A DNA stretch of 64,000 nucleotides, taken from a virus. The position numbers and the translations under genes are program-made. The notes under the pieces are model-generated. The model worked only from the letters and a program-made list of their open reading frames with translations. It was not told the origin of the DNA and made no database searches. The number at the start of each line of letters is the position of its first letter. Positions within the stretch are counted from its first letter, which is position 1. The DNA lies in UHGV virus genome UHGV-0179428. The stretch is one strand, 5' to 3'. Shown piece by piece: positions 26 to 54,444 of this stretch.

Positions 26-2713
26 TTGAAACCGTATATCTCTTATACAGAGAACGGTCAAGCGCAGCTGCGTGGTTTGTCCGGTGACGACGTGAAGAAA
101 CTGGCCGAAGGGTTTGGTACTAACGTAGAAGACAAAGGCGAAATGCTGGCGTTTACCGCATTTATGCTACAACGTTTTGTGCCGATCTATTTGCGTTGGA
201 TTACAGCGTTACGTTCAATGGATAACGATATCGCGTTAGCTGACGTCGGTAATCCGTCGAAGGTATCAAAAGCAGACATGCTTACCATCTTTAACAAAAT
301 GAAGATGACAAAAGATGCACCTGCTTTTAAATCGCTGACGGACCCCCGTAAAGTTAACCAAGGTTGGTTCTCTAAAGCGTGGGATTTCGTGACCTTCACA
401 CCGGCAGAATTTTTGTCAGGCGAAGAAGTTGTCGAAGCACAAGATCGTGTTTTCCGTTCGATCAACATGCGCCGGGATGATAAGCGTAAGGAAACAACTG
501 GAACCGGCGCTGTGCCTGAAGGACATAAGGTTGCTTCTGTGGCAGAATCTTCGCAGGTACTCGCGAAGAACGATACCGAACGTAACGAAACTGTTGCTAA
601 AGCTGAGGGTTGGGAAGACGGTACTGAACAGGTTCAAATTCAAGTTGACTGGAGAGTATTACCTGAGAAGAAAGATTTGGACGCGATGGAATCCGTCCGT
701 TGGAAATCTTACGGTGTGAAATCTGTTAATGAGACAACACGTACCCTCTTTAGATTGCTTGAGAAAGAAGTGCTGAAAGACACGGATATCAAAAATTGCA
801 TTTATAAGGGCGATTGGAAGAAAGCAATTTCTGCGATTGCGCCTGATGCAATTGGCGGTCCAAAAGAGGAACGTTACAAGAACTGGTTCTATAATCGATT
901 CTTACCTGTATTCATGACCTACGTTTATGGTGTAAAACGCTACGTACCTCATGCAGATCCGTTGGATTTGAAACTCACAGGGGGGTTCCTCTATGAGCTG
1001 GCACTGATGATGCGTGGTGCTTACAACATGAAAGGGGGTATCCGTCAGTCTGTGTGGGAAATCGCATTTAACCCGTTAGGAGGCGATGCGAATACTGACG
1101 CAGGTTCGGTGAAGGAAGAATTAGCAACGTTGAAAGAGTTGTCTAAAGAACCCGATCTGGCTGTAAGGAATATGCTCAAAGAAACACCGAGCACACCTAA
1201 GCGTATGACATGGAAATCACCAGCGACAAACTCCAGTGTCCATCAGACGAATGAAGATAGTAAAGAGCGTTATAAGGGAATTAACAGCTACGGCGAAGCT
1301 TCAAACGATGGATACTTACCAAAAGGTGGTCAGTCCTACGGTACGCCAGGTGACTTATCACAAGTTGTTGGCGATATGGGTATAGGGAACTACGCGAAGT
1401 ATTCCACTGGACAATCTGGTATCACCCTCGGTGAGTTACAAGACGGTGATTACAAATCGTTAGTGACTAAATACCCAAGGGAAATGCTCGGTAAACCGAT
1501 GCAGTCAAATACCGAAGCCATCAAGTCATTGATTATCGACGCGGCAAACATGGTGGGTGTTCCGCCATCCGTTGCGATTGCAATGGCACAAGCAGAATCC
1601 GGCTTACAGTATGGCAACTATCCTGGCGCATCCTCTGGTAGACCGAGAAGCAATAAGATGTCTGCCGCTGGCCTGTTCCAATTTACCAATGGCACTTGGA
1701 ACGGGGTTATGAAGCAATACGCACGAAGATACGGTATTCCACAAACCGATCAGTTCGACCCGTGGGCTAACGCAATCTTAGGCGTTAACTTCATTAGAGA
1801 CAACATCAAGACCGCACAAAAGGATCTTGGTGGAATTGCCCCACCTCCGGCAGTGGCGTACCTATACCACTTCTTAGGTCCAGGTGGTGGTGCTGAGTTC
1901 CTTAAAGCCTGGAAAACCAATCCTAACGGGTCGCCCGACAAAGTGAAGTACATTACACCTGCCGTTCTTAACGGTAATGAAGGTGTTTTCTATATCATGA
2001 ACGGGAAGAAACGCGTTAGGATGCGTACGATCGGTGAGGTTGTCGAGGAACTGAACCGCCGTATGGGCGCGGTTGGAACTAACGAGATTGCAGCAAATCC
2101 TGCGTCTGCGAAAAACATGACAAAAGGGTTATCGCCAGTTCCATCGTCCCCTGCAATTGCTGCTGGCGCAGCTAACGATCCGTCTATTGCTGGTCCGGCA
2201 GATAACCTGCCAGCCGCGAACGAGGCGAATCGTGACTCCGCTTTAGCAGACAAAGGAGCGATGGGCGCTGAAGATATTAAAGCTGCAACGGGTGGTGGTC
2301 CGGCTGTGCCGAGTCCTGGCGGTGATGTCACGCCAAGTGATGCGTCTGTCGTTGTTGAAACGGTGGGTCAAAATGCGCGTGCTGACGGCTTGGGAGAAGA
2401 GGAAGTTGCCAAAGTAAAAGAAGGTGCTAGACAGCAAATGGAGAAAACAGCTCGTCCTGCACCAACGGTAACGTCTGATGCACAGACCGCGCCAACGGTG
2501 AACAGCGGTGATCCGATTAACGTACAACAGCTGGCGGTTGCAAAAGAGTCTGCGGGTTATCTGAGAGAGATTGTTACAATTCTTCGTCAGCGGCCACAGG
2601 CTATGCAGTCCTCCCCAGCGAGTTCGGCAGCTTCTGCCCCGGGGTCAGCATCACGTAACATCGCGGTTGAACAACCTGCCCGCCAACTCGACGTTGGTCG
2701 TAAACGGGCGTAA
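26..2713 (+). CDS. Virion-associated protein with family-1 lytic transglycosylase (SLT) domain; probably 5'-truncated by the window edge
   Basis: 895-aa ORF; frame is open from position 2 so the gene likely starts upstream (track start is a TTG). Central motif AQAESGLQY...SAAGLFQFTNGTW...DPWANAILGVNFIRDNI matches the SLT catalytic Glu-Ser and GLxQ signatures. C-terminal ~250 aa is Ala/Pro/Ser/Gly-rich low complexity. Confidence 0.65.
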   Translation: MKPYISYTENGQAQLRGLSGDDVKKLAEGFGTNVEDKGEMLAFTAFMLQRFVPIYLRWITALRSMDNDIALADVGNPSKVSKADMLTIFNKMKMTKDAPAFKSLTDPRKVNQGWFSKAWDFVTFTPAEFLSGEEVVEAQDRVFRSINMRRDDKRKETTGTGAVPEGHKVASVAESSQVLAKNDTERNETVAKAEGWEDGTEQVQIQVDWRVLPEKKDLDAMESVRWKSYGVKSVNETTRTLFRLLEKEVLKDTDIKNCIYKGDWKKAISAIAPDAIGGPKEERYKNWFYNRFLPVFMTYVYGVKRYVPHADPLDLKLTGGFLYELALMMRGAYNMKGGIRQSVWEIAFNPLGGDANTDAGSVKEELATLKELSKEPDLAVRNMLKETPSTPKRMTWKSPATNSSVHQTNEDSKERYKGINSYGEASNDGYLPKGGQSYGTPGDLSQVVGDMGIGNYAKYSTGQSGITLGELQDGDYKSLVTKYPREMLGKPMQSNTEAIKSLIIDAANMVGVPPSVAIAMAQAESGLQYGNYPGASSGRPRSNKMSAAGLFQFTNGTWNGVMKQYARRYGIPQTDQFDPWANAILGVNFIRDNIKTAQKDLGGIAPPPAVAYLYHFLGPGGGAEFLKAWKTNPNGSPDKVKYITPAVLNGNEGVFYIMNGKKRVRMRTIGEVVEELNRRMGAVGTNEIAANPASAKNMTKGLSPVPSSPAIAAGAANDPSIAGPADNLPAANEANRDSALADKGAMGAEDIKAATGGGPAVPSPGGDVTPSDASVVVETVGQNARADGLGEEEVAKVKEGARQQMEKTARPAPTVTSDAQTAPTVNSGDPINVQQLAVAKESAGYLREIVTILRQRPQAMQSSPASSAASAPGSASRNIAVEQPARQLDVGRKRA

Positions 2714-17951: not shown

Positions 17952-19448
17952 TTATTTCTTTTTCGTCAGGAACTTCGGTTCTAGTCCATCGACAGCCATA
18001 CCCAGAATGGTACGTGCAGTCAGTGTACGTTTACCGCCTTTGGTTTCCTGGTCTTTAAACATCCAGTATTCTACCGTGTTGTCCAGAATTTCATTCCAGT
18101 CCCACTTCTCGTCAATCAGTTTGTAAATCTCACCCATGCTGAGATGATACTTCATTTCAAGACGATGGTAGTTGTTTTGCATATACGCAATTGCCGCAGT
18201 GATTTCTAAAGCGCGACGTAAGCGGGCGTTATCAGAAATCATATCACGGATCGTCGTGCGTTGGAATTTCACACCAGGTAGAATATCCAGTTCTTTGATG
18301 GAACCGCCACTACCGCTTGATGTGAAACCAAAGTCTGACTTCTTCAGCGTGTCACTTAAATAGTGCCACAGGCTCAGGTGATATAGCAGACCCATTTCCT
18401 GAGAGAAGATCATCTGAAATTTCACACCGGTGTGACCACCCTTCGCACGATACTGGGTAAAGGTGATAATCTTCAAGTCGTTTACCGACGCATTCATCGC
18501 TTTAGAACGTGACGTCGGATAAAGTTCTTCGTTAACACCGGTCTGTGCGTTATAGCTCTGGTCTTTCTTCAGTTCCCCTGATTTCGTCGCGACGATAAAA
18601 GAGTTTGTTAAAAAGCTAAGCTGACGGCGAGGAATACCTGCGAATTTGAGGTCATCGTTGGCGTCGTCGAGAATTTTTGCATTTGCTTTTTGTGCCTGTC
18701 GGCCACCCGCCATCGCTTTCCCAGAGTCATCGGCCATCTGTGCCACGAAGCCCATGTAAAAACCACCGCGTGCAAACGCAGACGGCCAGCGGCTCATCAT
18801 ATTCGATTTCTGCAGCGCATCGTGAGCGTTCAGGATGTTCTGATCAGAATCCCCGATATCCGTTTTTGCGTGTTTGTCTTCCAGCGAACTAGAATGCCAC
18901 TCTGACAGGGAGTCGATAGAATAAAGCCAGGGGTCCAGGATTTCTTTTAACTTGCGACGAACCGGATCGGGGAACGGTGTTACGCGGGTCTTACCAGACA
19001 TATACTGTTTGAAGCGTTTTTCAACTTCATCACGAATATAATCACTGTAATACTGTTCCCCAGGCATTACGTCAGAACCGACCAGGTTATAACGACCTTC
19101 GTGGATAAGTTCCAGTACGGTTGTTCCGTCGTCGATACCGTTGGCGTTCATGGCAGAGATGTACCCAGTTTCTAAACGATCGAGGGCAGCGGACACTTCT
19201 GTATCGTACTTAGAACCCCACTCTGCTTTATAACGTTGCAGGATTTGGAAGATACAGAAATCTAACAAGGTGGATTTAAAGGTGTTACCGCGACCTGCGA
19301 AACCCATGATGTGGGCAAAACCACCGTTAAGGTAGTACAAACCATCTTCACCTTTTTCGTAGTTACCTAAGGCATGATCCATGATGGTGTAAACGTTAAA
19401 ACGTGGACGAATTACTTCACCGATAACTTGCTTAGTTGGGCCTGCCAT
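17952..19448 (-). CDS. Hypothetical protein (498 aa)
   Basis: Long ORF; no confident motif. Confidence 0.55.
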   Translation of the reverse strand: MAGPTKQVIGEVIRPRFNVYTIMDHALGNYEKGEDGLYYLNGGFAHIMGFAGRGNTFKSTLLDFCIFQILQRYKAEWGSKYDTEVSAALDRLETGYISAMNANGIDDGTTVLELIHEGRYNLVGSDVMPGEQYYSDYIRDEVEKRFKQYMSGKTRVTPFPDPVRRKLKEILDPWLYSIDSLSEWHSSSLEDKHAKTDIGDSDQNILNAHDALQKSNMMSRWPSAFARGGFYMGFVAQMADDSGKAMAGGRQAQKANAKILDDANDDLKFAGIPRRQLSFLTNSFIVATKSGELKKDQSYNAQTGVNEELYPTSRSKAMNASVNDLKIITFTQYRAKGGHTGVKFQMIFSQEMGLLYHLSLWHYLSDTLKKSDFGFTSSGSGGSIKELDILPGVKFQRTTIRDMISDNARLRRALEITAAIAYMQNNYHRLEMKYHLSMGEIYKLIDEKWDWNEILDNTVEYWMFKDQETKGGKRTLTARTILGMAVDGLEPKFLTKKK

Positions 19449-20617: not shown

Positions 20618-20668
20618 AAAAGTAAAGTTACCCCTAGACCACACGGTCTAGGGGTAAACTATTTATTT
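20606..20668. terminator. Bidirectional Rho-independent terminator (13-bp stem TTACCCCTAGACC / GGTCTAGGGGTAA)
   Basis: A-run, long perfect stem with ACAC loop, then T-rich run; between convergent genes. Confidence 0.65.
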
Positions 20669-21562
20669 CCCACGATAAAATCCAGAAATGTAACTCGGCG
20701 CTATCCATCGCCATTCGCGCCAGCGCATTTCTGACATTTTACCACACCATACACGCTTCCAATGCGCACGACGGATATGTGCGGCGCAATAAATCGCCAA
20801 ACAAACCTCGTGTCCTTCCTTGCGCTGCTGCTCTATATCTTCCCATTGTACCGGACTTACATCTAAAACGACAGCTTCACTACGTGGGCGAATTTCTGTA
20901 TCAGGAACATAACGAATGGACCTTCCGCGAAATTCTTTCTTCTCGCGCTCAGTTCGTTTAATTCGCGATGAAAGATATAGCCCGATGTAGACCGCGTCGA
21001 GTAGTCGTTGATTCTCCTTAACCGAAGTAAGGAGCGGCTTTAACTCCACGAAATCGTCATTACTTTTATCGATTGTGTAAATCTCAAACTCCATGTATAC
21101 CGTCTCGTCATGTTCTTCGCATGACATCACAAAGAGAACTTCTTCACCTTCGTAAAGACGTCTTCCGATAAATAACGTGATTGGACTTTCGTCGAGATTT
21201 ACAGTAACCGAGAAAGTAAATGAAGGGATGGTTTCTATCCAGAAGTACGGGATATTTTTTAGTCTCTCAGTTTTTGCTAAGAGCGCCATCAATTCTTCAT
21301 CCGAGATGATTTCAACAGCGGCGTATTGCCATCCTAGTCCCAGGGACTGCTTAATCAGTCTTGGAATCTGTTCGGTAACGCCATACTCACGATAGGTCGG
21401 ATCTTTAACTGGCATAAACGTTACGGGTATTTGACGTTTATGCTCGTTAATGAACCGAATAAAGCGACACTGATCTAATCCGTGAATTGTTTGGTGTGCC
21501 TTTTCTATTTGTTCGCTCATGCGTCTTAGCGCTTTCCCGTAAAGTCTATTATTCGTTGTCAT
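20663..21562 (-). CDS. Hypothetical protein, paralog B of a tandem pair with conserved basic C-terminal H-I-R-R-A-H-W motif
   Basis: Start moved to the ATG at 21562 (AGGAG upstream), removing the overlap with the upstream paralog. C-terminus AAHIRRAHWKRVWCG...WIAPSYISGFY aligns with the C-terminus of 21588..22514. Confidence 0.55.
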   Translation of the reverse strand: MTTNNRLYGKALRRMSEQIEKAHQTIHGLDQCRFIRFINEHKRQIPVTFMPVKDPTYREYGVTEQIPRLIKQSLGLGWQYAAVEIISDEELMALLAKTERLKNIPYFWIETIPSFTFSVTVNLDESPITLFIGRRLYEGEEVLFVMSCEEHDETVYMEFEIYTIDKSNDDFVELKPLLTSVKENQRLLDAVYIGLYLSSRIKRTEREKKEFRGRSIRYVPDTEIRPRSEAVVLDVSPVQWEDIEQQRKEGHEVCLAIYCAAHIRRAHWKRVWCGKMSEMRWREWRWIAPSYISGFYRGK

Positions 21563-21587
21563 TTTAATACTCCTAAACACTTTTAGC

Positions 21588-22514
21588 TTAATTGTGGGGT
21601 ACGTAGCCACGGACAAAGGTAGGTGGAATCCAACAAAGTTTTCTCTTTCTTTCACCATTTCTAGGGCCGACCCAATATCTGCGCCAGTGAGCGCGACGGA
21701 TGTGGGCAGCCTTAGCATGTTTGATACCCTGCATGGTTTTCAAGTCAGTGTTAAACCCTTTTAGATAATTCACTTGTCCTGGCGTGATATCTATCTTAAC
21801 ATCGCGTTCACGAGGTTTAACGTCGTAACTAATACTACCGTTCTTTTTGATTTCCTTGAACTTAATATCATTAAAAGACTCCCTGTAATTGGGCGGGATT
21901 AGCGTACACAGAAAAATCATCGAAGTAGCGGCTTTGGCCAGAGATAGCCATAGCATCTTTTCTTGTTCGGTCCGTACGCCAGTTGTATAATCGATTTCAA
22001 CAAGCCCGTTTCCAACACTACATATCTCTAACGAGCAGGTGGCGATTGTGGTAACGCCTTCTGTTAACCCGTAATCAGTATTTGTAGCAATTATAATAAA
22101 CCTTCTCTTCCCGTTTTTTCGATAGCCGAGAAAGAAAGTCTCATCCTCTTTACCTACGTCGATTGCTACAGTCCATGTGGGTATAAAGTCCAACCATTCT
22201 TCAGGGAATTTACTGGGCATCTCAGTCTCGAAAACAAGTTCTCTAAGTGCTTGGTTGGATATTAAGGAAGCGCCACCGTATAGCCATCCAATTGCCAATG
22301 TTTGAGCGTGAAGGGAACGGGGATCTTTGAGACCTAACTCGGCGTCGTAGGGTATAAAGGCATTAGTTAAATGCTTACGATTCTTTTTTATCCATTTCGA
22401 GACGGGATTTTCTTTTGTTTGATTTTCTTCCATGACATTTTCTAGATGCTGACACCCCATTTGTCTAAGGCAGTCTTTAATACCTTTTACTTTTTTACTT
22501 TTGTACAAATACAT
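21588..22514 (-). CDS. Hypothetical protein, paralog A of tandem pair with conserved basic C-terminal H-I-R-R-A-H-W motif
   Basis: C-terminus AAHIRRAHWRRYWVG...WIPPTFVRGYV; central similarity to paralog B. Confidence 0.55.
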   Translation of the reverse strand: MYLYKSKKVKGIKDCLRQMGCQHLENVMEENQTKENPVSKWIKKNRKHLTNAFIPYDAELGLKDPRSLHAQTLAIGWLYGGASLISNQALRELVFETEMPSKFPEEWLDFIPTWTVAIDVGKEDETFFLGYRKNGKRRFIIIATNTDYGLTEGVTTIATCSLEICSVGNGLVEIDYTTGVRTEQEKMLWLSLAKAATSMIFLCTLIPPNYRESFNDIKFKEIKKNGSISYDVKPRERDVKIDITPGQVNYLKGFNTDLKTMQGIKHAKAAHIRRAHWRRYWVGPRNGERKRKLCWIPPTFVRGYVPHN

Positions 22515-23590: not shown

Positions 23591-24163
23591 TTATACTCCT
23601 TTAGGTTGACCGTATTTTGATGACAGGTAGATGAGCTCAGCATGGCAGATTTTCTCAACTAACCCGAGTGACTCAAGGAAAATATCCCGGATACGAGACA
23701 TTGTTTCGTTGGTAAGAATATCGCTCCAACACGTTGTGTCTATTATATCCGTCGTTGAAGATTGTCGCTGCAATATGGCGACATACACTTCATCGAGGGT
23801 ATCTGGAGCATTATTCTGTAAGTAATGCGCGGCATGTAGAAAGGCTTTCTCAAGAATCAGGTGAATATCCGTATCGGGATCAGTTACCCGCACTAAATGT
23901 GGGTATGTCATGGCCGAATGGATTTTTCGTTCTAACTGTTCAATGAGATTATTCACCATCGCTTCTGAATCCAGGATAGTAATTTCAACCCCACTGTGTT
24001 CTTCAGAAATCTTGTTCTCATGTACTGCTATCGCGTCGTGCAGTTCAAACGCAACGCGGCTACGCATCTCACTTAACAGTTTGTTTAATTTGCCCCGTGA
24101 CTCACTGAGTGAGAAATCGATAAGTATTTTCATGTTAATAGCCCTGATAAATGATGTCGTCAC
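23591..24163 (-). CDS. Hypothetical protein (190 aa)
   Basis: ORF. Confidence 0.5.
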   Translation of the reverse strand: MTTSFIRAINMKILIDFSLSESRGKLNKLLSEMRSRVAFELHDAIAVHENKISEEHSGVEITILDSEAMVNNLIEQLERKIHSAMTYPHLVRVTDPDTDIHLILEKAFLHAAHYLQNNAPDTLDEVYVAILQRQSSTTDIIDTTCWSDILTNETMSRIRDIFLESLGLVEKICHAELIYLSSKYGQPKGV

Positions 24164-24872
24164 GGTCTTTACGTAACTGGCAGTATGTTACGTCAGCACC
24201 GTTAGGGATTTGTACGCCAGCGTCTTCAAGATAAATAACACCAGTCTGATTACAGAAATAAAAAGACCACAAGTACGGATTGCCTTGACAACTGTTTTCA
24301 CGATGATCGAAGGGCCAATAACCACGATACAATTCGTCGTAATCACCACGCTCGATACCAAAAGCAACCATTTCTTTTTCCCACAATCTGCTTTCGGCGT
24401 CGTAAATCGAAAACCAGAAACCGACGAGGTTCTTTGTCCGTTTAACGTTCATTAAGTCGTTATAAATGGGGAAGAGTGCTTTATTGAAACTTTCTAACAT
24501 CTCTGGAGAGAGTAGAAAGTTCACGTAGTATTCTAGCCATTGATAAACGGCTTCCCAGACATCTTCAGAAGAGAAATGCTCGAATACGGCGTCATCACAA
24601 TCGTAGTTATCGAAGACCCCTGAGAGATCTATTATGACGTCGCGAAGGTCAAAGTTTCGGTTGGTATTGACAGCCTCAATAACTTCGGAGATAAGACGAG
24701 TAAAGACGTTTGTGCAGGCAGTCTGTGCGGTATAAAAGAATTCTCCTTGTACGGTTGACCACTTTGGGTCCTTCAAATGTTCATTGAAGTATTGTGGCCA
24801 AATTTTATAAAAGATTCCCTCGAACAACGAGGGATTGATACGTTGTAATTGAGGGACATAAACTTTCAGCAT
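24135..24872 (-). CDS. Hypothetical protein (245 aa)
   Basis: ORF. Confidence 0.5.
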   Translation of the reverse strand: MLKVYVPQLQRINPSLFEGIFYKIWPQYFNEHLKDPKWSTVQGEFFYTAQTACTNVFTRLISEVIEAVNTNRNFDLRDVIIDLSGVFDNYDCDDAVFEHFSSEDVWEAVYQWLEYYVNFLLSPEMLESFNKALFPIYNDLMNVKRTKNLVGFWFSIYDAESRLWEKEMVAFGIERGDYDELYRGYWPFDHRENSCQGNPYLWSFYFCNQTGVIYLEDAGVQIPNGADVTYCQLRKDRDDIIYQGY

Positions 24873-24908: not shown

Positions 24909-25577
24909 CTATCTAAGAATATTTTTAGCGAAAAAAGGATCGACTGTAAACTCCTTCACCTGTGAGTCATAACCCGAATGTATCTGATCGCTACTGAGCA
25001 AATACTGGTCTAAATCGTGCGGAAGAATCCAAGAATCACCTTGCTTAAAAATACCATAATCTGTTGTTCCAGAGGAAAAAACGATTTCCTCTGGAGACGA
25101 ATAGATGTGGCGTAAGGCAAGATCGGACGGCTTTAACACGATTAATCTAACGGGATGTTGACTGACTGCCTCTTTAATAAACTGTTCACGATTAAACCAA
25201 ATTATTTTTTCGGGGTAAGTTTCGAATTCAGCCCATGTCCGCGTGATAACTAATTTGGAAATCTTTCTCAATTCTTCAGAATGCTCTGCGTAGCCGATAC
25301 ACTCCTTGCGCACTTCATGATTTTCTACCGATGCTGTGAATTTTTGGAATAGGTGTTGTTGGAAAAAGCCGTTCTCCGGGATATCACAACCCGCGTTGTA
25401 TAGTGCAATGATCTCCCACAACAACGAAAGAGAAAACACAAATGCTAACTTTTCCACAACTTCCCAATCTTCGGAGTAAGGGGCTTTAAAGCCCCAATAC
25501 TGCCGTGCGTTATACATAAAGTGAGTTTGTAAAAACCGAGGGGCTTTTGACAAGACCTCACTATAAACGATCAGCAT
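24909..25577 (-). CDS. Hypothetical protein (222 aa)
   Basis: ORF. Confidence 0.5.
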   Translation of the reverse strand: MLIVYSEVLSKAPRFLQTHFMYNARQYWGFKAPYSEDWEVVEKLAFVFSLSLLWEIIALYNAGCDIPENGFFQQHLFQKFTASVENHEVRKECIGYAEHSEELRKISKLVITRTWAEFETYPEKIIWFNREQFIKEAVSQHPVRLIVLKPSDLALRHIYSSPEEIVFSSGTTDYGIFKQGDSWILPHDLDQYLLSSDQIHSGYDSQVKEFTVDPFFAKNILR

Positions 25578-27091
25578 TCAAGCTCCTTATCCGTCAATAT
25601 TCGTTTGTTTGAATAATAGCCACACCACAAGCCATGATATTTTTCCCCAATATAAACCAACGCGTACTCGATATACTGCCGTTCTGGACGCCGTACCGCC
25701 ACGTAGAAACGCCCTTCTGGTTCTTTCATACGGTTGATTTCTGTACGCGTCGGTATGTCGATACCTCGAGTAAGGATGGTTTTAACCTTGTTTTTGCTAC
25801 CAGGGATATGGATGGTTACGTCAAAACCTTTATCTACATTACGATAAAAGTCTTTCTTCGGCTTACCTTTCTCATCGTAAAGCAGGTCAGTAATGTCGTT
25901 CATTACGACTGAGTTTTTCCCCTCCATGGCATCACGTAACCAACCTGCAAGCTCATCACGAATCGTAATGCAGCGATAAGACAATAACGCGGGACGAAGA
26001 ATTCGTGTAATCGAAAGATCTTCAAACATCCACAGGTTTTTGTCTTCGCTAAAATGCATCCGATCGACAGGAATACCGTTAGCTGCGGCTTCTGCGAACT
26101 TCTTACGTTTTACGAATAAGTTAAAAACAACGGCGATGGGATCAAACTGACGTAAACGGGGCACCCCTTCCCACGCTTTCGCAGAGTGGGTATTTACCAA
26201 CTCGTATACGTTGTTCCATGGTTCTTTGGTAAACATTACGCAGAATTGTGCATCTGGAATGTACTTACCAACGAAGACGATATCGTCCTTCTGTTTTGCA
26301 TGGTTCCCACCGAACATGTAATAAAGTTTATTACCGTTAACTGTAACAGTGGGATGGGGTTCGTTCACCATCGGGTAACAGAACTTCGTAACACAGATAT
26401 CGGGAAAAGCGGACAAATTGACACCCTCACCAACAACTTCTGGTTGCTGATCTTCCTCAGGCATCTCGTCTTTTGACCAATACGGCGTATAGTCTAGCCC
26501 CTCCCCTCGACCAGAGATACTTGAACCCTTCCGTGCTAACTCGTCGGCACGCTCATTTCCATAACGCCCAGAATGACCTTTAATTTTAAGGACACGAACG
26601 CCTTTCCCTTCTTTCTTTAACCGCTGTTTAACCTCCCACATCCGTTGGATTAATTCCAAGTTCGCAATAGGCGTACCGTCCGCACGACGCCAACCGCGCG
26701 CAGCCCAACCATCAATCCAATCGTTATACGTGTTGACAACGTAAGATGCGTCGATGTAGATAACATAGTTTTTGGCAACGAAAGGTGCGTGTTCGAAGAC
26801 GGTCAGGAAAGCCACGAGTTCCGCAACATCAGAGTGTGACATTTTTGGTACAGGCACAACACCGTCGATAAACTCCACGGTTTCTGGTAAAGGTGGAAGT
26901 TTTTCATCCTTGTTTATCTGGCGGTATCCTGACGTCGTAATCCCCTCAGGAATAGAAGGATGGCGGTAAACCCGACCATCCTCAATCGTTTCACGATTAA
27001 ATAAGTATCCATGAATCCCCGCTCCTGTACCGAGCGGGGAGGTCAAATGGCTACCATCCGTGTAAATTACTGCAACATCAACGTTCTTCAT
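25571..27091 (-). CDS. RNase HI-domain protein fused to a ~310-aa C-terminal domain of unknown function
   Basis: N-terminal ~190 aa match RNase HI: VIYTDGS, SDVAEL, IYIDASYVVN, WxxRGWRRADGTPIANLEL, KIKGHSGRYGNERADELAR. The remainder has no recognisable motif. Confidence 0.75.
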   Translation of the reverse strand: MKNVDVAVIYTDGSHLTSPLGTGAGIHGYLFNRETIEDGRVYRHPSIPEGITTSGYRQINKDEKLPPLPETVEFIDGVVPVPKMSHSDVAELVAFLTVFEHAPFVAKNYVIYIDASYVVNTYNDWIDGWAARGWRRADGTPIANLELIQRMWEVKQRLKKEGKGVRVLKIKGHSGRYGNERADELARKGSSISGRGEGLDYTPYWSKDEMPEEDQQPEVVGEGVNLSAFPDICVTKFCYPMVNEPHPTVTVNGNKLYYMFGGNHAKQKDDIVFVGKYIPDAQFCVMFTKEPWNNVYELVNTHSAKAWEGVPRLRQFDPIAVVFNLFVKRKKFAEAAANGIPVDRMHFSEDKNLWMFEDLSITRILRPALLSYRCITIRDELAGWLRDAMEGKNSVVMNDITDLLYDEKGKPKKDFYRNVDKGFDVTIHIPGSKNKVKTILTRGIDIPTRTEINRMKEPEGRFYVAVRRPERQYIEYALVYIGEKYHGLWCGYYSNKRILTDKELEC

Positions 27092-27093
27092 TC

Positions 27094-27828
27094 TTAATCC
27101 CTGGTTAATTGATCACGAATCTGCGGCGCAACATACTCGCCCGTTTTCAGTTCTTCGTGACAGGCTTTGGCGCGTTCAAACCCGTATTGGCGAGTGACCA
27201 AAGCGAGGTGGTAAATACGTGCCGTGGTGTAGGCTTCTTTTGCTGCATCCCACATTGCGTGGTGCTCAAAAGCGGGCTTACCGCGTGTCCAGTAAATTTG
27301 CTCTACGGTTAGGTCAGGCTCGAAACCAAATGCAAAGGCTAAACGTTCTGCGGTACGATCGCTATCCAGTGCACTGAATTTACGGAACTTCCCTGGCGGA
27401 ATATCACACTGTGCGAACGCGTTCATGAAAATCGGTGCATCGAAGTCAGGACCACGCATGGTAATAACAAATTCATGTTTTGCGGTAATCTCCCCGAGCC
27501 ATTTTTGCATCGCCCACAGTGCGTCCGGCAATGCTGTCGTCCCACCCCATGCTTCCGCATAGGCTTCACGAGACGGTGCGTATTCGGGTTCGCCTTTACC
27601 TTCCCACCAACCAACGGTTTGTGGGTCTTCGTGGAAAATGGCTTTTGCTTTAGGATCGTTAGGATCAATACGGATGTATGAGGAACCGACCATTTTCAAT
27701 GTAGGGACGTCAAAAGCCACTAAACCTGCACTTAACAGATAAGCATCGGGACGTAATGATTTGGTTTCAGCATCGGCACCAATAACCAGTGTCGGCGTGT
27801 ACGGGGTGACAATTTTTGGGTAGGTCAT
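27094..27828 (-). CDS. DnaQ-like (DEDDh) 3'-5' exonuclease
   Basis: Exo I-like VIGADAET, Exo II-like DFDAPIF, Exo III-like HHAMWDAAKEAYTTARIY (H-x4-D); immediately downstream of the RNase H gene. Confidence 0.5.
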   Translation of the reverse strand: MTYPKIVTPYTPTLVIGADAETKSLRPDAYLLSAGLVAFDVPTLKMVGSSYIRIDPNDPKAKAIFHEDPQTVGWWEGKGEPEYAPSREAYAEAWGGTTALPDALWAMQKWLGEITAKHEFVITMRGPDFDAPIFMNAFAQCDIPPGKFRKFSALDSDRTAERLAFAFGFEPDLTVEQIYWTRGKPAFEHHAMWDAAKEAYTTARIYHLALVTRQYGFERAKACHEELKTGEYVAPQIRDQLTRD

Positions 27829-27865: not shown

Positions 27866-27913
27866 AAACGTTAAAAAGAAAGACCCTCCTGTACCTCGAA
27901 GGGTACAGGAGGG
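27866..27913 (-). terminator. Rho-independent terminator (12-bp stem CCCTCCTGTACC / GGTACAGGAGGG)
   Basis: Long GC stem and T-run on the minus strand after the stop of 27918..28376. Confidence 0.6.
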
Positions 27914-27917
27914 GGTG

Positions 27918-28376
27918 TCAGTACAAACACGATGTCAAGTATTGGTTATACGAATCGAGCAGCGCCTGACGGTCGGAACGGTAATTCCACAACAAATTAT
28001 TGAGTTTACGCGATAAATCACGGCTAATCTCCTGGGCCGTTAAAGAGCTCTCATCAAGAGACAAGCGTTCAGGTACAACGTGTAATTTCGGTAACTCATA
28101 GCGTTCACAAAGTGGAGCCAACATTGGTGGACTCCAGCCACGTTTAACGGCTTGCTGGTTTAAATTTCGAGTGTAGACATAAACGTAATAAGCATAGGTG
28201 TTGACATCTGCAACATACTCACGCATTGCATTCTTGTCAATTTTCCAATTCACCATTATTGGTGGTTCAGGAGGAAGTTCCAGTGGTCTATAAGCTGGAC
28301 GTTTAACTTCGTCACCGTAGCTATTACTCACCAACCCCACGAACACTACCATGATGAATAATAGCATTTTCATCAA
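27918..28376 (-). CDS. Secreted proline-rich protein with signal peptide (152 aa)
   Basis: N-terminal MMKMLLFIMVVFVGLVSNSYG-DEV signal peptide; Pro-rich mature N-terminus; no lipobox Cys. Confidence 0.5.
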   Translation of the reverse strand: MMKMLLFIMVVFVGLVSNSYGDEVKRPAYRPLELPPEPPIMVNWKIDKNAMREYVADVNTYAYYVYVYTRNLNQQAVKRGWSPPMLAPLCERYELPKLHVVPERLSLDESSLTAQEISRDLSRKLNNLLWNYRSDRQALLDSYNQYLTSCLY

Positions 28377-33091: not shown

Positions 33092-33601
33092 TTAGAAGAA
33101 CGGCTGATTTGGAATGACAGCGTACTCTAAAATGAACATGTGCTCTGGGGCGTCTTCTTTACGCCAGACTTTGTGTGTTATCACAAGTTTTTCCAGAATC
33201 GTTAGAAAACTACGCTGGCAGTATGTGTTTTCGCCAAGTAGCAGTTTCTGAAGTTCTACAGTAGCGTCCATATACGCCTGTTTAAAGACTAAGCTACGGT
33301 TATACTGTCCAGTAAAATTCCAAAGCAAGACTTTCCCTTCTTCGGTTTCTTTTACCGTTGGTCGTAAACCACAAATCCACAGCAAGGCAAGGTTGACGTT
33401 CCAGTCAAACTCTAAACCTTCTTCTTCGTCATCACCGAATGCTGTAGGTAAAGCATCGTAAAATTCGTGCTTCTCTGCGAACTCTTCATCCGATTTAATC
33501 TCGTCTTCGATGCTGCTTCGGACGATACCGTAAATGTCTTTCGCGGTTAGCTGTGCGGCCTTTGTAATGCCTTTATACCAATCGGTTACAACGATGCTCA
33601 A
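33092..33601 (-). CDS. Hypothetical protein (169 aa)
   Basis: ORF. Confidence 0.5.
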   Translation of the reverse strand: MSIVVTDWYKGITKAAQLTAKDIYGIVRSSIEDEIKSDEEFAEKHEFYDALPTAFGDDEEEGLEFDWNVNLALLWICGLRPTVKETEEGKVLLWNFTGQYNRSLVFKQAYMDATVELQKLLLGENTYCQRSFLTILEKLVITHKVWRKEDAPEHMFILEYAVIPNQPFF

Positions 33602-34323
33602 AGGGTAACTCCTCTATCGGTTGGAAAACTCATGTTTATTGTATCCCAAATTTTACTAACTTCCGCCAATTGAATCTGACGTGATGTTTTCTTCGCAAAC
33701 GCAAGCTGACGTGGGGCCGAGCCCACAACAACAGGCACATCGATTTTCGCGCTATAGAACGCGGCATCTTTCATAAAGCCTGCCATTTCTCGTTGTGCTG
33801 CTCGAGATTTGCTTTTGATTCGCGTGTGAGCGCCACTTTCACCCCAGTGGTAAGCTAACGCAACTTCAGCCATGGTGGGCTTGCGTTTGAGTCGTTTGGT
33901 TAACCCCTTCTCAAGATGTTTAACATACGCGGTAGCCAGCAAAACAGCGTTACGCGGATTATACAAATCGGTGTTCTGACTAAGACCTAATTCTTTTCCA
34001 TAAAGCTTTAGCAGATTGCGCTTGGTACTTGGAAGCATCTGTACCAGGCTGTGCGCTCGTGTGCTTTTGTTGTAAGCCTTGGGATCAAAACGTGATTCGC
34101 GATAAATCAGCGTAATCATCAGTTTAGGATCAACGCCTTGTTTTCGTGAGATTTCCACAATTAACGGACTGACTTTTTCGAACCGATGTTGGATTTGTGT
34201 AAACTCACGCTGATGCTTAGAATGTGGCGTTGACGTTGACGCCTGTGCGTTAAACGCGAAAAGTGTTACCAGTAAAAGAAAGAAGATACGAAACATTTTG
34301 TTTCTCCAGTTGGATTTATACAT
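33598..34323 (-). CDS. Secreted lytic transglycosylase (SLT domain) with signal peptide; candidate endolysin
   Basis: Signal-like MFRIFFLLLVTLFAFNAQA; SLT motifs YRESRFDPKAY...AHSLVQMLPST and YNPRNAVLLATAYVKHL. Confidence 0.6.
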   Translation of the reverse strand: MYKSNWRNKMFRIFFLLLVTLFAFNAQASTSTPHSKHQREFTQIQHRFEKVSPLIVEISRKQGVDPKLMITLIYRESRFDPKAYNKSTRAHSLVQMLPSTKRNLLKLYGKELGLSQNTDLYNPRNAVLLATAYVKHLEKGLTKRLKRKPTMAEVALAYHWGESGAHTRIKSKSRAAQREMAGFMKDAAFYSAKIDVPVVVGSAPRQLAFAKKTSRQIQLAEVSKIWDTINMSFPTDRGVTL

Positions 34324-50121: not shown

Positions 50122-53100
50122 ATGGCTGTCGTCCTAGACCCACACTTCAAAAAACCGGGGAATAAAATAACCGGTGAAGCGGTCGCCGTCATTGGTACGA
50201 AATACCGAATGTTGGTACCTGCCCACGCCCCTTTTTTCACCACATCCCTGGTGGTCAAGAGCGGCGGCAAAACACTGACCTTAGGCGACGATTACATTAT
50301 TACACACCCGTACGAGACCGGTATGTTGCGCACAGCCTATCTCATTCACGGGATGATTTGGATTGTTAATGACAAATACAAATCGAATTTTACGGTAGAT
50401 TACCACGCCGTTGGTTGTGGTCAGGCTACCCAACAACAGATTACCGCAGAACGCGAACTCAATAAAGATAAATACCCGACTACGTGTCAGTGGGACACCG
50501 TCATCGGGGACGTTTACTTTCCGCCGGTCGATATCCAGTTCGATTGGGAGAATTGGAAAGGCGAACTGGAGTTAATGCAGGCTATTGCTGGATTAGGCGA
50601 TTCGTTAGGGGAAGTCGTGAGTCGACTTAACCCCATCGCACGCAATACCCTGGATTTAGAATACCGTGCTAACAGCAAGGTTATCACTTCCGAGCAGTAT
50701 GCCGTATACGACAATAAAGGTGGTTTCACCTACAACACTACCCGTCATCGTTATAGCTTGAGTTATAAAACTGCAACCTTTAACGACTACGTCCTGTCCG
50801 TGAAACACAGAATTCCTGCTATTCTGCCAGACATGACGAAATTGAATCCAAACGAACAGATCGATTGGATGCTCTGTTATGCTAACGGCGGTGCAAGCAT
50901 TCTACGGTTGCAGCTAAAACAGCGCAAAATCTCACTGGTCTTAACGGTCGCTATTGGCAGCGGTTCAACAAACTACGATTATACGTTAATCAACGGTTTA
51001 ACTGACGATGAGTTAAAAAACGATATCGATTTTAGTGTAACCCGTCAACCCGGAAACGGTGTTTACGTCATCGTAGTAAAAACAAATAAACAGACCATGG
51101 ATTACACATTCAACGTCGATACGCCGCCTGATGAGTTCTCGGCAGGGTATTCGAAAACGGATGTTGCTAAATGGTTGAAGTTTAAAACGAACATTAATCT
51201 AAACTGGTATGCGGCCGAAAACGATTATATTCAAATTCGTTCTTTACCCGGCGCACCAGAACCTGACGTCGATAATGATGTTTACCAGTTAATAGTCAAA
51301 TACCATCAGTTAGTTGAGCAGCTGTATCGTAACGCGCCTGCACACGAACACGTTACACGTAAGGACAACCCGCACACCGATACGTGGGGACCGATCCGTG
51401 CGTTAGAGCTGAATGGTATTGCGTCGGATGCCGCGTTAGCTTACGGGAAAACGAAACAGCAGTTAACGGATTACGTTAATGCTAAGTACCCAACACAAGC
51501 AACGTTAACCGCACAGAAAAAACTGCTTCGTGAATCGGCGAGCAAGAACGTTAACGGCACGATTACCACACTTCCGGGTTTTACTTCGTTCACGACGGAA
51601 GTTGATCCGGTTTCGATGTCGAAATACGTGAGTCCTTATTTTAGCGAAAGCTATGTTAGTAGTGGTCACAGATATCACGGCGCGCTTCGTTACACAGGAA
51701 CGAAAAGCGGTTTCAGTGCTAACTTTAATGCGGTGCCTGCCAACCTGCAAGATATTGACTTTATTGTTACTGGACGTAAAACAGCGTCTGGTAATGAAGC
51801 GGTCGGTAGGGTTGGTTTACGTTTCTACCAAAATCCTGGTAGTAACTCCGGTAAGTACGTAGAGATTACCGGTGAAATCTGGTCCGGTACTCTTACTATC
51901 GAACTGGCGTTGCACGGTTACGGTAGTCCGGTACCGGCAGTTCGGTATATTTCACAAGCTCCTAACCCGGCAATACCGGATGGGGATTTTACGCTACGTT
52001 TTCAACTGAAGCGTACAGGGAATGTGTTTGACGTCGTTATTACCGTAAACAGTAAAACGTATAGCGGTCGGATTAACTTCAATAACATGGACGCTGCGTT
52101 AGAAGCATTAGAGAATCAGCACCACTTTAAATCGCTGATTAATAATGTTGCCGACGCCGTTACCATTAGTTCGCAAAACAAAGGTAACACAGTTACCATT
52201 AAGAAAGCACCGGATGTTGTTGACGAGACACGTTTAGGCGCTCAGTTTGTCGTTGATCCGAAATCCATTAAGTTCATCGGTCAAGGTTCTACTGATGTTA
52301 ACGTGGGTAACAACCCCGTAACGTTCCAAGCAGGTACTAACCAGCTTGTGCTATACCCCGATGACCGAGGATTGTTGTGGCGTGGTAAAAAACTCTTAGA
52401 CCCCACCACCGTAGCCCCGTATCTGCCAGGCAATACCGCAGGTGGTACAGGTTTATTCTACGCAAACTCGACAACAACGGTTACGATCACCGGTAGCGGG
52501 ATAAAAGCCTCGCCGTTCGTAGCGACCTTTATTCTTCCTACCGCGACCGATACAACAGCTCTGGCGGCTTGGCAGTTGACCGATGAGTTTGGTACCGCTG
52601 AAAACCTTGCAGCAACGCCAGCACTGATTGAAAAACTCGATGCGGAGTTCACCGGTAAGTTAGTTGCAGTTAAATCGTACATTAACGACATGCAACTTAC
52701 CAGCTCGGTTACTATCGATAAGATTACCTTTGGTTTAGGTAATGTTGCGAATACGCCTGATGTTGATTTACCGATTTCTACAGCACAACGTGCGGAGTTA
52801 GATAAATACTCGCCTAAAGTTCACCAACACCCGTTTACCGCTTTTGGTACAGGGAACGCAACCACAGCGAAACGTGGTCTGATTAAATTTGGTCTGGATG
52901 TGGATGATGCGACTTTAGCACTCGATGGGAGTGTGGTAATGGCGCAGACTTCCCAGATTGAAAAATTGGAGCGCGCTGTCAGCGGTGTTGACTCGGAGGC
53001 ACGTCTTGACATTATACGTTTTGGTGAGTCTGGTAACGACTTAATAGACCTTACGGTCAAAGACAAAATTCTGGTCACGCTTCCAGCTTCAACGTATTTT

Positions 53101-54444
53101 ATCGGTGGTGAAACATACGACGTTCCGTTGATGACGATTAACGTCAGTGAACGTTTTCCGAAATTGAATACAGAAATCTACGCAGGGATTTTTGTTGATA
53201 TTGTTGACAACAAAGCGAAGTATATTGTCCATGACAGCTACAGTCAGGCTGAAACGGATACCATGACGCGTGTAGGGTTGATTGGTGTTAACGACATTTC
53301 TGAGGTGTTCGTTACGGAGATGCGTAATGTCACACGGTTGGGTGATTTCCGTGAACTGAAAGATCATAAAGCCGATGACAACGCACACATTCAGCGCTCC
53401 GCGTCACGTGCAGCGCTTGGGTTAGCTAACTTAACCGTAGGCGCGCCTTGCTGGGCTTCTGGACTCCAGGCAGTAGTACGCGGTGAAGCAGATTGGCGTT
53501 ATGTTGCCGGTGGGCAGTATAAAGCTTTAGACGGGGTGAAATACGACCAACTCGCATCAAAGTGGATTTTTGACGCGAAAGGGGTAAGCGATAACCTACA
53601 CGGGTTTATCCACAACATGTTCCCAGCTTTTAAGAACGCAGGAATGCGGGTAAGTTGGGAAACAGAAAGCAACGCAAAAACCGGCACGGTGTTAGAAACT
53701 GTTTTAGGTTGTTGGAAAAACACCGACGGCGAGTTTATGCGGTTGTCGTTACTTATCACTCGTGGTTATCGTTTAACTGACAGCAATGGTGAATATTGTT
53801 ACGCAGGGTTCGGTTTGAACTTCGGTAGCGGGAAATCGGTAGTGGTAGGTTTCACACCAACGAAGCGTGTTACGCCTGCACCGTGGAATACGTTACAACC
53901 TGACGTAACGTTTACCCACACCCGTGCTGCAAACAACGCAATAACGTTTAACGCAACACTGACCTTAGCGGGCACTACGTATACCATCGTGGTGTTTTTA
54001 TCTGCGACAGATAAATACGTAAGCTGCACGGCAGCAGGGGGAGCTACGCAGAAAATCCCTCTAACTGACCGTTTAACAGGGTTCAATATCGCACCTATCG
54101 TTAACGATCCGTATACCCCTATTTACTACGGTTTAGGGGGACTTTATGAGGATGAGGTTCGTGCCAACATCCGTTCTACGGCAGACAGCGCAACCTCGAA
54201 TAAAGTCTATGGTACGTTGTTAGACTATATTAGCAACTATTCCTCATTAAATCGTGTGCGCGTTATGGAATTGACCGGTGTCAGTTCAGACCCCGAAACG
54301 CTTAATGCGTTAGTGGCAACTGAATTTAATAACAACCTGGCGGATTACGCTGCGTTACCGATACCTCCTTATCTTAACAAGGAGCGCGTAATGTCGTTTA
54401 TCGACACCAACAATAAAGTGCAGGCGGTAATCATTCGCGATTAA
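50122..54444 (+). CDS. Long tail fibre protein (1440 aa) with phage tail-fibre repeat motif
   Basis: AGGAG RBS; internal FGLGNVANTPDVDLPISTAQRAELDKYSPKVHQH resembles the conserved phage tail-fibre repeat (G-x-x-N-V-x-N-T-x-D-x-D-x-P-x-S) followed by a His cluster; Thr/Gly/Asn-rich. Confidence 0.7.
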   Translation: MAVVLDPHFKKPGNKITGEAVAVIGTKYRMLVPAHAPFFTTSLVVKSGGKTLTLGDDYIITHPYETGMLRTAYLIHGMIWIVNDKYKSNFTVDYHAVGCGQATQQQITAERELNKDKYPTTCQWDTVIGDVYFPPVDIQFDWENWKGELELMQAIAGLGDSLGEVVSRLNPIARNTLDLEYRANSKVITSEQYAVYDNKGGFTYNTTRHRYSLSYKTATFNDYVLSVKHRIPAILPDMTKLNPNEQIDWMLCYANGGASILRLQLKQRKISLVLTVAIGSGSTNYDYTLINGLTDDELKNDIDFSVTRQPGNGVYVIVVKTNKQTMDYTFNVDTPPDEFSAGYSKTDVAKWLKFKTNINLNWYAAENDYIQIRSLPGAPEPDVDNDVYQLIVKYHQLVEQLYRNAPAHEHVTRKDNPHTDTWGPIRALELNGIASDAALAYGKTKQQLTDYVNAKYPTQATLTAQKKLLRESASKNVNGTITTLPGFTSFTTEVDPVSMSKYVSPYFSESYVSSGHRYHGALRYTGTKSGFSANFNAVPANLQDIDFIVTGRKTASGNEAVGRVGLRFYQNPGSNSGKYVEITGEIWSGTLTIELALHGYGSPVPAVRYISQAPNPAIPDGDFTLRFQLKRTGNVFDVVITVNSKTYSGRINFNNMDAALEALENQHHFKSLINNVADAVTISSQNKGNTVTIKKAPDVVDETRLGAQFVVDPKSIKFIGQGSTDVNVGNNPVTFQAGTNQLVLYPDDRGLLWRGKKLLDPTTVAPYLPGNTAGGTGLFYANSTTTVTITGSGIKASPFVATFILPTATDTTALAAWQLTDEFGTAENLAATPALIEKLDAEFTGKLVAVKSYINDMQLTSSVTIDKITFGLGNVANTPDVDLPISTAQRAELDKYSPKVHQHPFTAFGTGNATTAKRGLIKFGLDVDDATLALDGSVVMAQTSQIEKLERAVSGVDSEARLDIIRFGESGNDLIDLTVKDKILVTLPASTYFIGGETYDVPLMTINVSERFPKLNTEIYAGIFVDIVDNKAKYIVHDSYSQAETDTMTRVGLIGVNDISEVFVTEMRNVTRLGDFRELKDHKADDNAHIQRSASRAALGLANLTVGAPCWASGLQAVVRGEADWRYVAGGQYKALDGVKYDQLASKWIFDAKGVSDNLHGFIHNMFPAFKNAGMRVSWETESNAKTGTVLETVLGCWKNTDGEFMRLSLLITRGYRLTDSNGEYCYAGFGLNFGSGKSVVVGFTPTKRVTPAPWNTLQPDVTFTHTRAANNAITFNATLTLAGTTYTIVVFLSATDKYVSCTAAGGATQKIPLTDRLTGFNIAPIVNDPYTPIYYGLGGLYEDEVRANIRSTADSATSNKVYGTLLDYISNYSSLNRVRVMELTGVSSDPETLNALVATEFNNNLADYAALPIPPYLNKERVMSFIDTNNKVQAVIIRD

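Follow-up and report, generated by a model that had tools for sequence, protein, structure and literature searches.

The 64,000-nucleotide stretch of DNA analysed here (the window, from virus genome UHGV-0179428) carries on its minus strand a gene, rhc, whose 506-residue product is a divergent representative of Rhc, a protein family characterised only very recently. The source phage belongs to the chimalliviruses, jumbo phages that form a nucleus. The best explanation of the evidence as a whole, including the part that concerns an exonuclease gene coupled to rhc, is that the protein is the Rhc subunit of the chimallivirus DNA polymerase, and we hold this to be very probable. The gene and its parts, each with the evidence on which it was delimited, are as follows.

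25571-27091, minus strand: rhc, 506-residue open reading frame (ORF) (ORF list; phrog_3265 match; orthologue of PhiKZ155/Nlp2 and Goslar gp190)
26507-27091, minus strand: RNase HI domain of Rhc, residues 1-195 (Pfam, PDB alignments, model and family alignment)
26426-26506, minus strand: acidic flexible linker of Rhc, residues 196-222 (model confidence and length variation in the family)
25574-26425, minus strand: putative clamp-like C-terminal domain of Rhc, residues 223-506 (predicted model and Foldseek)

Rhc matches phrog_3265 from end to end (E 1e-168). Its nearest cultured relatives are gp226 of Erwinia phage Asesino (67% identity) and the proteins of pEa_SNUABM_29 (66-67%) and of SPN3US-like Salmonella phages (63%), while more distant full-length matches are found in PhiKZ-like, Serratia and other jumbo phages. 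BLASTP aligns Rhc colinearly with PhiKZ155 over residues 5-494 (E 3e-30, 25% identity) and with Goslar gp190 over residues 68-497 (E 1e-25, 23% identity). Homology is also detected when the C-terminal 312 residues are used alone as a tblastn query, which finds PhiKZ (E 8e-5, inside PHIKZ155), Goslar (3e-8), PCH45, Moabite and RSF1. The window protein resembles PhiKZ155/Nlp2, PhiPA3 gp176 and Goslar gp190 in its two-domain architecture, length, linker, catalytic residues, gene neighbourhood and kind of phage. It differs from PhiKZ155 and Goslar gp190 in that it is only 23-25% identical to them and in that a coupled DEDDh exonuclease gene lies upstream of it, an arrangement absent from PhiKZ, Goslar and RSF1. 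A 145-kb metagenome contig encodes an identical Rhc protein sequence, and contigs of up to 177 kb carry a cluster representative that is 99% identical. In the Salmonella phage SPFM records (P0051-P0055 and P0188; LR5359xx) both rhc and the exonuclease gene are broken up or frameshifted into 'hypothetical proteins' that give many short matches, which looks like assembly or sequencing error and not biology.

An earlier, sequence-only reading of this locus had assigned a full set of RNase HI motifs, with unsubstituted catalytic residues, to the N-terminal region. Both statements are borne out. Pfam RNase_H (PF00075) matches residues 81-190 with E 5e-21 (75.8 bits against a cutoff of 25.8), and RNase HI/H1 chains in PDB align to residues 86-191 at E of about 1e-11, covering the KGH...NERADELA segment; the best PDB sequence matches are the E. 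coli, Thermus and human RNase H1 enzymes. An alignment of 123 family sequences shows that the catalytic residues D12, E91, D114 and D183, together with H173, are all present and align to D10, E78, D102, D171 and H161 of PhiKZ155. Like E. coli-type RNase HI (rnhA), the domain has a DEDD active site with its histidine and keeps the basic protrusion (W125...W129...W134...N144). Unlike it, Rhc has an insertion of ~45 residues (30-80) after the first beta-hairpin, with conserved T52, G55 and Y56, and a C-terminal extension of ~310 residues, and its NCBIfam scores lie far under the cutoffs of the rnhA equivalogs (65 bits against 160 for NF001236 and 50.9 against 280 for NF005116). A stand-alone bacterial RNase HI of the rnhA equivalog type (~155 residues) is ruled out by these sub-cutoff scores, by the 506-residue length and by the extra domain.

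That extra domain had been described as a 310-residue C-terminal domain. It is real, but its folded part is shorter, comprising ~284 residues (223-506) that follow a linker of ~27 residues. The model of full-length Rhc has a predicted local distance difference test score (pLDDT) of 90.5 and a predicted template modelling score (pTM) of 0.56, with residues 209-222 disordered at pLDDT below 50. Because of this pTM value and the disorder at residues 209-222, we regard Rhc as two domains on a flexible tether. The length of the linker varies within the family, the segment matching residues 196-235 being 13-71 residues long. When modelled alone, residues 223-506 form a two-lobed alpha/beta domain (pLDDT 91.3, pTM 0.90).

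The predicted fold of this domain appears closest to DNA sliding-clamp protomers. In a Foldseek search against PDB the top matches are PCNA (E 3.6e-3, probability 0.57), and the ring clamps in general (PCNA, 9-1-1, T4/RB69 gp45 and bacterial beta) are its best structural neighbours. In a search against BFVD the RNase H proteins of the Rhc family come first, with TMq of 0.66-0.94, including those of jumbo phages Wellington, Noxifer and RP12. The matches ranking below the family are weak and are mostly unnamed or uncharacterised proteins of ~230-260 residues; among those with names are herpesvirus accessory factors, viral PCNA and DnaN. The herpesvirus processivity factors UL42, UL44 and PF-8 differ from Rhc in having no fused RNase H, in belonging to an unrelated virus lineage and in showing no sequence similarity, and their fold scores against the C-terminal domain are below those of the 9-1-1 proteins and PCNA. 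The nearest BFVD neighbours outside the Rhc family are I1VX43 (233 residues, E 1.4e-9, probability 1.0) and G4KKB4 (247 residues, E 3.3e-4), both stand-alone viral proteins of clamp-protomer size. These two could be free-standing relatives or could represent an ancestral clamp.

Several further results should be set beside the fold search. The clamp fold scores are modest, and the modelled fold taken alone would amount to a consistent lead that falls short of proof. No clamp family appears among the Pfam matches of 20 family members at E up to 10, nor does a clamp appear among the PDB profile matches of C-terminal domain alignments. In these Pfam and PDB profile searches and in NCBIfam the domain has no meaningful sequence match of any kind, which agrees with the original impression that the region holds no recognisable motif; the best sequence matches, influenza PA (E 0.1) and a designed protein (E 0.9), were treated as chance. 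Rhc thus differs from the canonical ring clamps (PCNA, beta, gp45) in failing sequence-profile membership. Clamp families are barely connected to each other by sequence. An hhalign comparison of the N-terminal and C-terminal halves of the domain gave no signal of internal duplication, a result that says little for clamps. The median isoelectric point of the domain is about 6.3, neither acidic like PCNA nor basic like UL42, so that charge says little either way. The region had been marked out for both fold and profile comparison; the fold search placed DNA clamps nearest, and the profile searches came back empty.

With only a fold match to go by, one could suppose that the domain is an unrecognised enzyme, such as the primase that these phages seem to lack, or some other nucleotidyl-transferase or nuclease, with a topology that happens to resemble that of a clamp. 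We consider this very improbable. The fold matches contain no primase, polymerase or nuclease fold; those matches that are enzyme-like align over ~70-80 residues, against 135-181 for clamps; and no enzyme family is matched by profile. The most conserved residues of the domain in the family alignment are Y239, G262, G275, P367, D399, T401, D445, P447 and R449, and the conserved D-x-T and D-x-P-x-R motifs are placed by the model at the starts of predicted helices, where a structural capping role would suit them. In addition, the PhiKZ cryo-electron microscopy preprint, in its abstract, describes DNA binding and not catalysis. Judging from conservation, the nine positions are candidates for an interface with DNA or with the polymerase subunit DNAP-C, or for structural caps.

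The C-terminal domain appears to be exclusive to the Rhc family and to occur there only in fusion with RNase H. Used as the query of an exhaustive phmmer search over 1.84 billion representatives, it returned 127 proteins, nearly all of them 450-585 residues long and matched at their C-terminal ends. Neither this search nor a profile built from 32 diverse domains found the domain as a stand-alone gene or in another architecture, so that a free-standing version in other phages, which had been envisaged earlier, did not emerge; only RNase H fusions did. Two 290-residue candidates for stand-alone domains, P0077 and P0136, were rejected as truncations, since they start at the first bases of their contigs. 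The RNase H fusion is therefore not peculiar to the window genome, the family counting more than 120 representatives at 50% identity.

Published work on orthologues ties Rhc to phage replication. PhiKZ155/Nlp2 is a core gene of nucleus-forming phages, and its protein is found in the phage nucleus, into which it is imported via Imp1/PicA. Antisense knock-down of PhiKZ155 blocks genome amplification and arrests nucleus maturation at the nascent stage. The protein has RNase H activity in vitro, although complementation was still obtained with a D102N mutant. A comparative-genomics survey found that nucleus-forming phages lack a classical sliding clamp and primase whereas RNase H1 is always present, and it lists clamp loaders only in other jumbo-phage groups. 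Two preprints dated October 2026, one on PhiKZ and one on Goslar, name the protein Rhc (RNase H-clamp). By cryo-electron microscopy of the PhiKZ complex, a single Rhc subunit is reported, whose sliding-clamp-related C-terminal domain holds duplex DNA together with the polymerase thumb. PhiKZ Rhc is stated to raise primer extension strongly, its RNase H domain being flexibly linked. In Goslar, Rhc is reported to bind DNAP-C, and replication to need both RNase H catalysis and the clamp-derived domain; it is also said to support late transcription, probably via R-loop resolution. Our fold search, which was made on the predicted model, agrees independently with the clamp-derived domain that these preprints describe.

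The sequence-only reading had suggested that the fusion partner targets RNase H to the replisome. This holds to the extent that orthologues are reported to bind DNAP-C and duplex DNA and that the predicted fold is clamp-like, but the domain would be more than a targeting tag. In the preprints it is described as a DNA-binding, processivity-type subunit of the polymerase, and the essential role of the PhiKZ protein outlived mutation of the RNase H active site. A likeness to known systems can be drawn with ring clamps and their PIP-box partners (RNase HII, FEN1), where the clamp keeps a primer-removal nuclease at the fork.

The import of PhiKZ155 raises a different reading, namely that the C-terminal domain serves chiefly in nuclear import or shell docking, providing either a surface recognised by PicA/Imp1 that licenses RNase H to enter the phage nucleus or an anchor at the nuclear periphery, with no direct role at the fork. 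PhiKZ155/Nlp2 is indeed an Imp1-dependent cargo, and GFP-tagged PhiKZ155 forms a PicA-like punctum at the nuclear periphery, for which a stable interaction has been proposed. However, no such domain is present in the other imported cargoes Nlp1, Nlp3 and Nlp4, and the interface through which Imp1 recognises its cargoes differs from one cargo to another. The confinement of the domain to the Rhc family and its predicted DNA-clamp-like fold also speak against this reading, as do the binding of DNAP-C and duplex DNA and the boost in synthesis that the preprints report for orthologues. We consider import as the main function to be improbable, and note that roles in import and in replication are not mutually exclusive.

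Whether Rhc of the polymerase needs its nuclease activity is a point on which the PhiKZ and Goslar studies disagree, and the family alignment bears on it. All four RNase H catalytic residues are kept in 117 of the 123 members, and this retention argues that RNase H catalysis is selected for in nature, a conclusion more in line with the Goslar finding than with complementation in PhiKZ. The other six members (P0071, P0074, P0078, P0110, P0160 and P0171) lack one or more of the catalytic residues and have kept the C-terminal domain; one of them, P0078 (585 residues), bears an N-terminal Macro domain (Pfam E 8e-11). As natural catalysis-dead variants of Rhc, these six bear on the dispensability of the nuclease activity.

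The genes and signals that surround rhc on the same strand are listed below.

27884-27913, minus strand: terminator-like hairpin 5' of the exonuclease gene (pattern scan; 12-bp stem with 8 G-C pairs, T-tract)
27094-27828, minus strand: DEDDh 3'-5' exonuclease gene, 244 residues (Pfam PF16473 and phrog_255)
24909-25577, minus strand: 222-residue ORF 3' of rhc, phrog_9472, function unassigned (ORF list and PHROG match)
24135-24872, minus strand: 245-residue ORF, next 3' after the phrog_9472 ORF, phrog_8219, function unassigned (ORF list and PHROG match)

A DnaQ-like exonuclease gene had been noted downstream of rhc. The gene and its Exo I, II and III residues are confirmed, but since both genes are on the minus strand it lies upstream. 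The proposed operonic arrangement of the two holds: the ATG of rhc follows the TAA stop of the exonuclease gene by 2 nt, and the purine-rich ribosome-binding site of rhc sits within the 3' end of the exonuclease gene, which has its own AGGAG ribosome-binding site 8 nt 5' of its ATG. At the other end the 222-residue ORF shares 7 nt with the stop end of rhc and is probably in the same operon. The hairpin at 27884-27913 is located between a 152-residue ORF (27918-28376) and the exonuclease gene and is probably the upstream boundary of the transcription unit, which suggests that a new unit starts within the 55 nt preceding the exonuclease ATG. In the pattern scan the number of terminator-like sites in the region is not above shuffled expectation, and the stem at 27884-27913 is by far the longest. 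The 2-nt spacing, the upstream hairpin and the downstream 7-nt overlap together make the operon reading reasonable. A second terminator-like hairpin (24816-24834, minus strand) falls within the first 20 codons of the 245-residue ORF; the true start of this ORF may lie further downstream, with the operon terminating at that hairpin.

The exonuclease itself matches Pfam PF16473 (Rv2179c-like 3'-5' exoribonuclease) over residues 19-203 (E 2.5e-11, 44 bits against a gathering threshold of 27) and phrog_255 'exonuclease' (E 3.8e-44). Its Exo I (DxE), Exo II (D) and Exo III (Hx4D) motifs are complete, with D19, E21, D130, H189 and D194, and these DEDDh residues are invariant in an alignment of the window protein, Asesino gp225 and pVa-21 gp139. 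The window enzyme resembles the Rv2179c-like exoribonucleases in its above-threshold Pfam score and full DEDDh set. It differs from them in being a phage protein for which a PDB sequence search found no close solved relative, and its substrate may be RNA or DNA. Homologues lie upstream of rhc in Asesino (gp225) and pVa-21 according to their gene tables, and in SPN3US-like and other Erwinia phages, e.g. Phobos, according to tblastn coordinates; CR5 also carries a homologue by tblastn. In the gene neighbourhoods of PhiKZ, Goslar and RSF1, all of which have rhc, the exonuclease is not beside it.

The two genes had been proposed to form a primer-removal or processing pair. The operon pairing exists in the SPN3US/Erwinia/Cronobacter/Vibrio pVa-21 subclade only. 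Because PhiKZ, Goslar and RSF1 carry rhc without the exonuclease, the latter is accessory to rhc rather than an obligate partner. Gene distribution indicates that one subclade acquired it and inserted it into the rhc operon. Outside the clade, its closest relatives are exonucleases encoded by small temperate Vibrio and Stx phages. Alongside Rhc it may serve in proofreading or in the clearance of RNA fragments. A more specific proposal, which we offer tentatively and think rather unlikely, is that the exonuclease of the SPN3US/Erskinevirus/CR5/pVa-21 phages is a lineage-specific fourth accessory factor of the replisome that acts in physical contact with Rhc and the polymerase, be it as a 3'-5' proofreader in trans or as a remover of RNase H leftovers (RNA fragments or terminal ribonucleotides). 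If true, this exonuclease-Rhc partnership would parallel that of epsilon (DnaQ) with the beta clamp in bacteria.

A nuclease pair of this kind could also be imagined as a defence or anti-defence module that destroys RNA:DNA hybrids of host immunity (e.g. retron, CRISPR or Argonaute intermediates), a role at which the sequence-only reading had hinted. Some defence and counter-defence systems do contain RNase H and DEDDh exonuclease domains. No PADLOC family, however, is matched at E up to 0.01 by Rhc, the exonuclease or the C-terminal domain, and the RNase H gene belongs to the core replication set of chimalliviruses, in a conserved replication and recombination neighbourhood. Depletion of PhiKZ155, moreover, blocks genome amplification itself. 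We find a defence role scarcely credible, and the defence-related targeting suggested for the fusion partner is likewise unsupported.

With Rhc taken as a polymerase subunit, a working model can be put together largely from its orthologues. Once made, Rhc would be imported into the phage nucleus through PicA/Imp1. Following the preprints, its single clamp-derived domain would there bind DNAP-C of the split B-family polymerase and, together with the polymerase thumb, would grip the duplex DNA leaving the active site; this grip would strongly stimulate synthesis, with neither ring nor clamp loader involved. On its flexible tether, the RNase H could then degrade RNA hybridised to the template, whether primers or R-loops. 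In the subclade the translationally coupled DEDDh exonuclease would be co-expressed with Rhc and would most likely take part in the same nucleic-acid processing, by trimming 3' ends or the RNA fragments that RNase H leaves behind, or by proofreading in trans.

The wider window is in keeping with this kind of phage, encoding also a UvsX-like recombinase, an SbcC-like nuclease, a thymidylate synthase and large virion proteins. The neighbourhood runs from the UvsX-like gene through rhc to a divergent virion structural protein gene; the latter lies upstream of rhc in the window, PhiKZ, Goslar, RSF1 and pVa-21, and a PhiKZ152-type gene is present in the window, in PhiKZ and, by position, in Goslar. 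The UvsX/RecA-like recombinase gene of the window (17952-19448, minus strand; phrog_97, E 1e-55) is the likely counterpart of PhiKZ152/Nlp1 and shows the recombination and replication block to be syntenic with PhiKZ 152-165.

Other features of the window were recorded in passing. Two adjacent minus-strand ORFs (20663-21718 and 21588-22514) both match phrog_6160, of unassigned function, and are tandem paralogues; because they overlap by ~130 nt as listed, the start assigned to the downstream ORF is probably wrong. Three consecutive giant genes on the plus strand (50122-54444, 54455-58639 and 58734-63920) encode mutually related virion structural proteins of 1440, 1394 and 1728 residues, which cross-match phrog_7557, 8078 and 7449, share an N-terminal phrog_2163 module and form a paralogous array. 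A transglycosylase module (phrog_4067) occurs in two proteins, a stand-alone one of 241 residues (33598-34323, minus strand) and a tail-fibre-like one of 895 residues (26-2713, plus strand) that is cut by the window start.

With the Rhc family, nucleus-forming jumbo phages gain the processivity factor that had long been missing from them; these phages had been thought to be without sliding clamp, clamp loader or primase. The rhc-coupled exonuclease of one subclade is the only element here that lacks an explanation in published work. The conserved residues of the C-terminal domain are targets for mutagenesis. As a divergent orthologue (~25% identity) from an uncultivated phage related to SPN3US and Asesino, the window protein indicates that the architecture, the catalytic residues and the C-terminal residues of Rhc are conserved family-wide.

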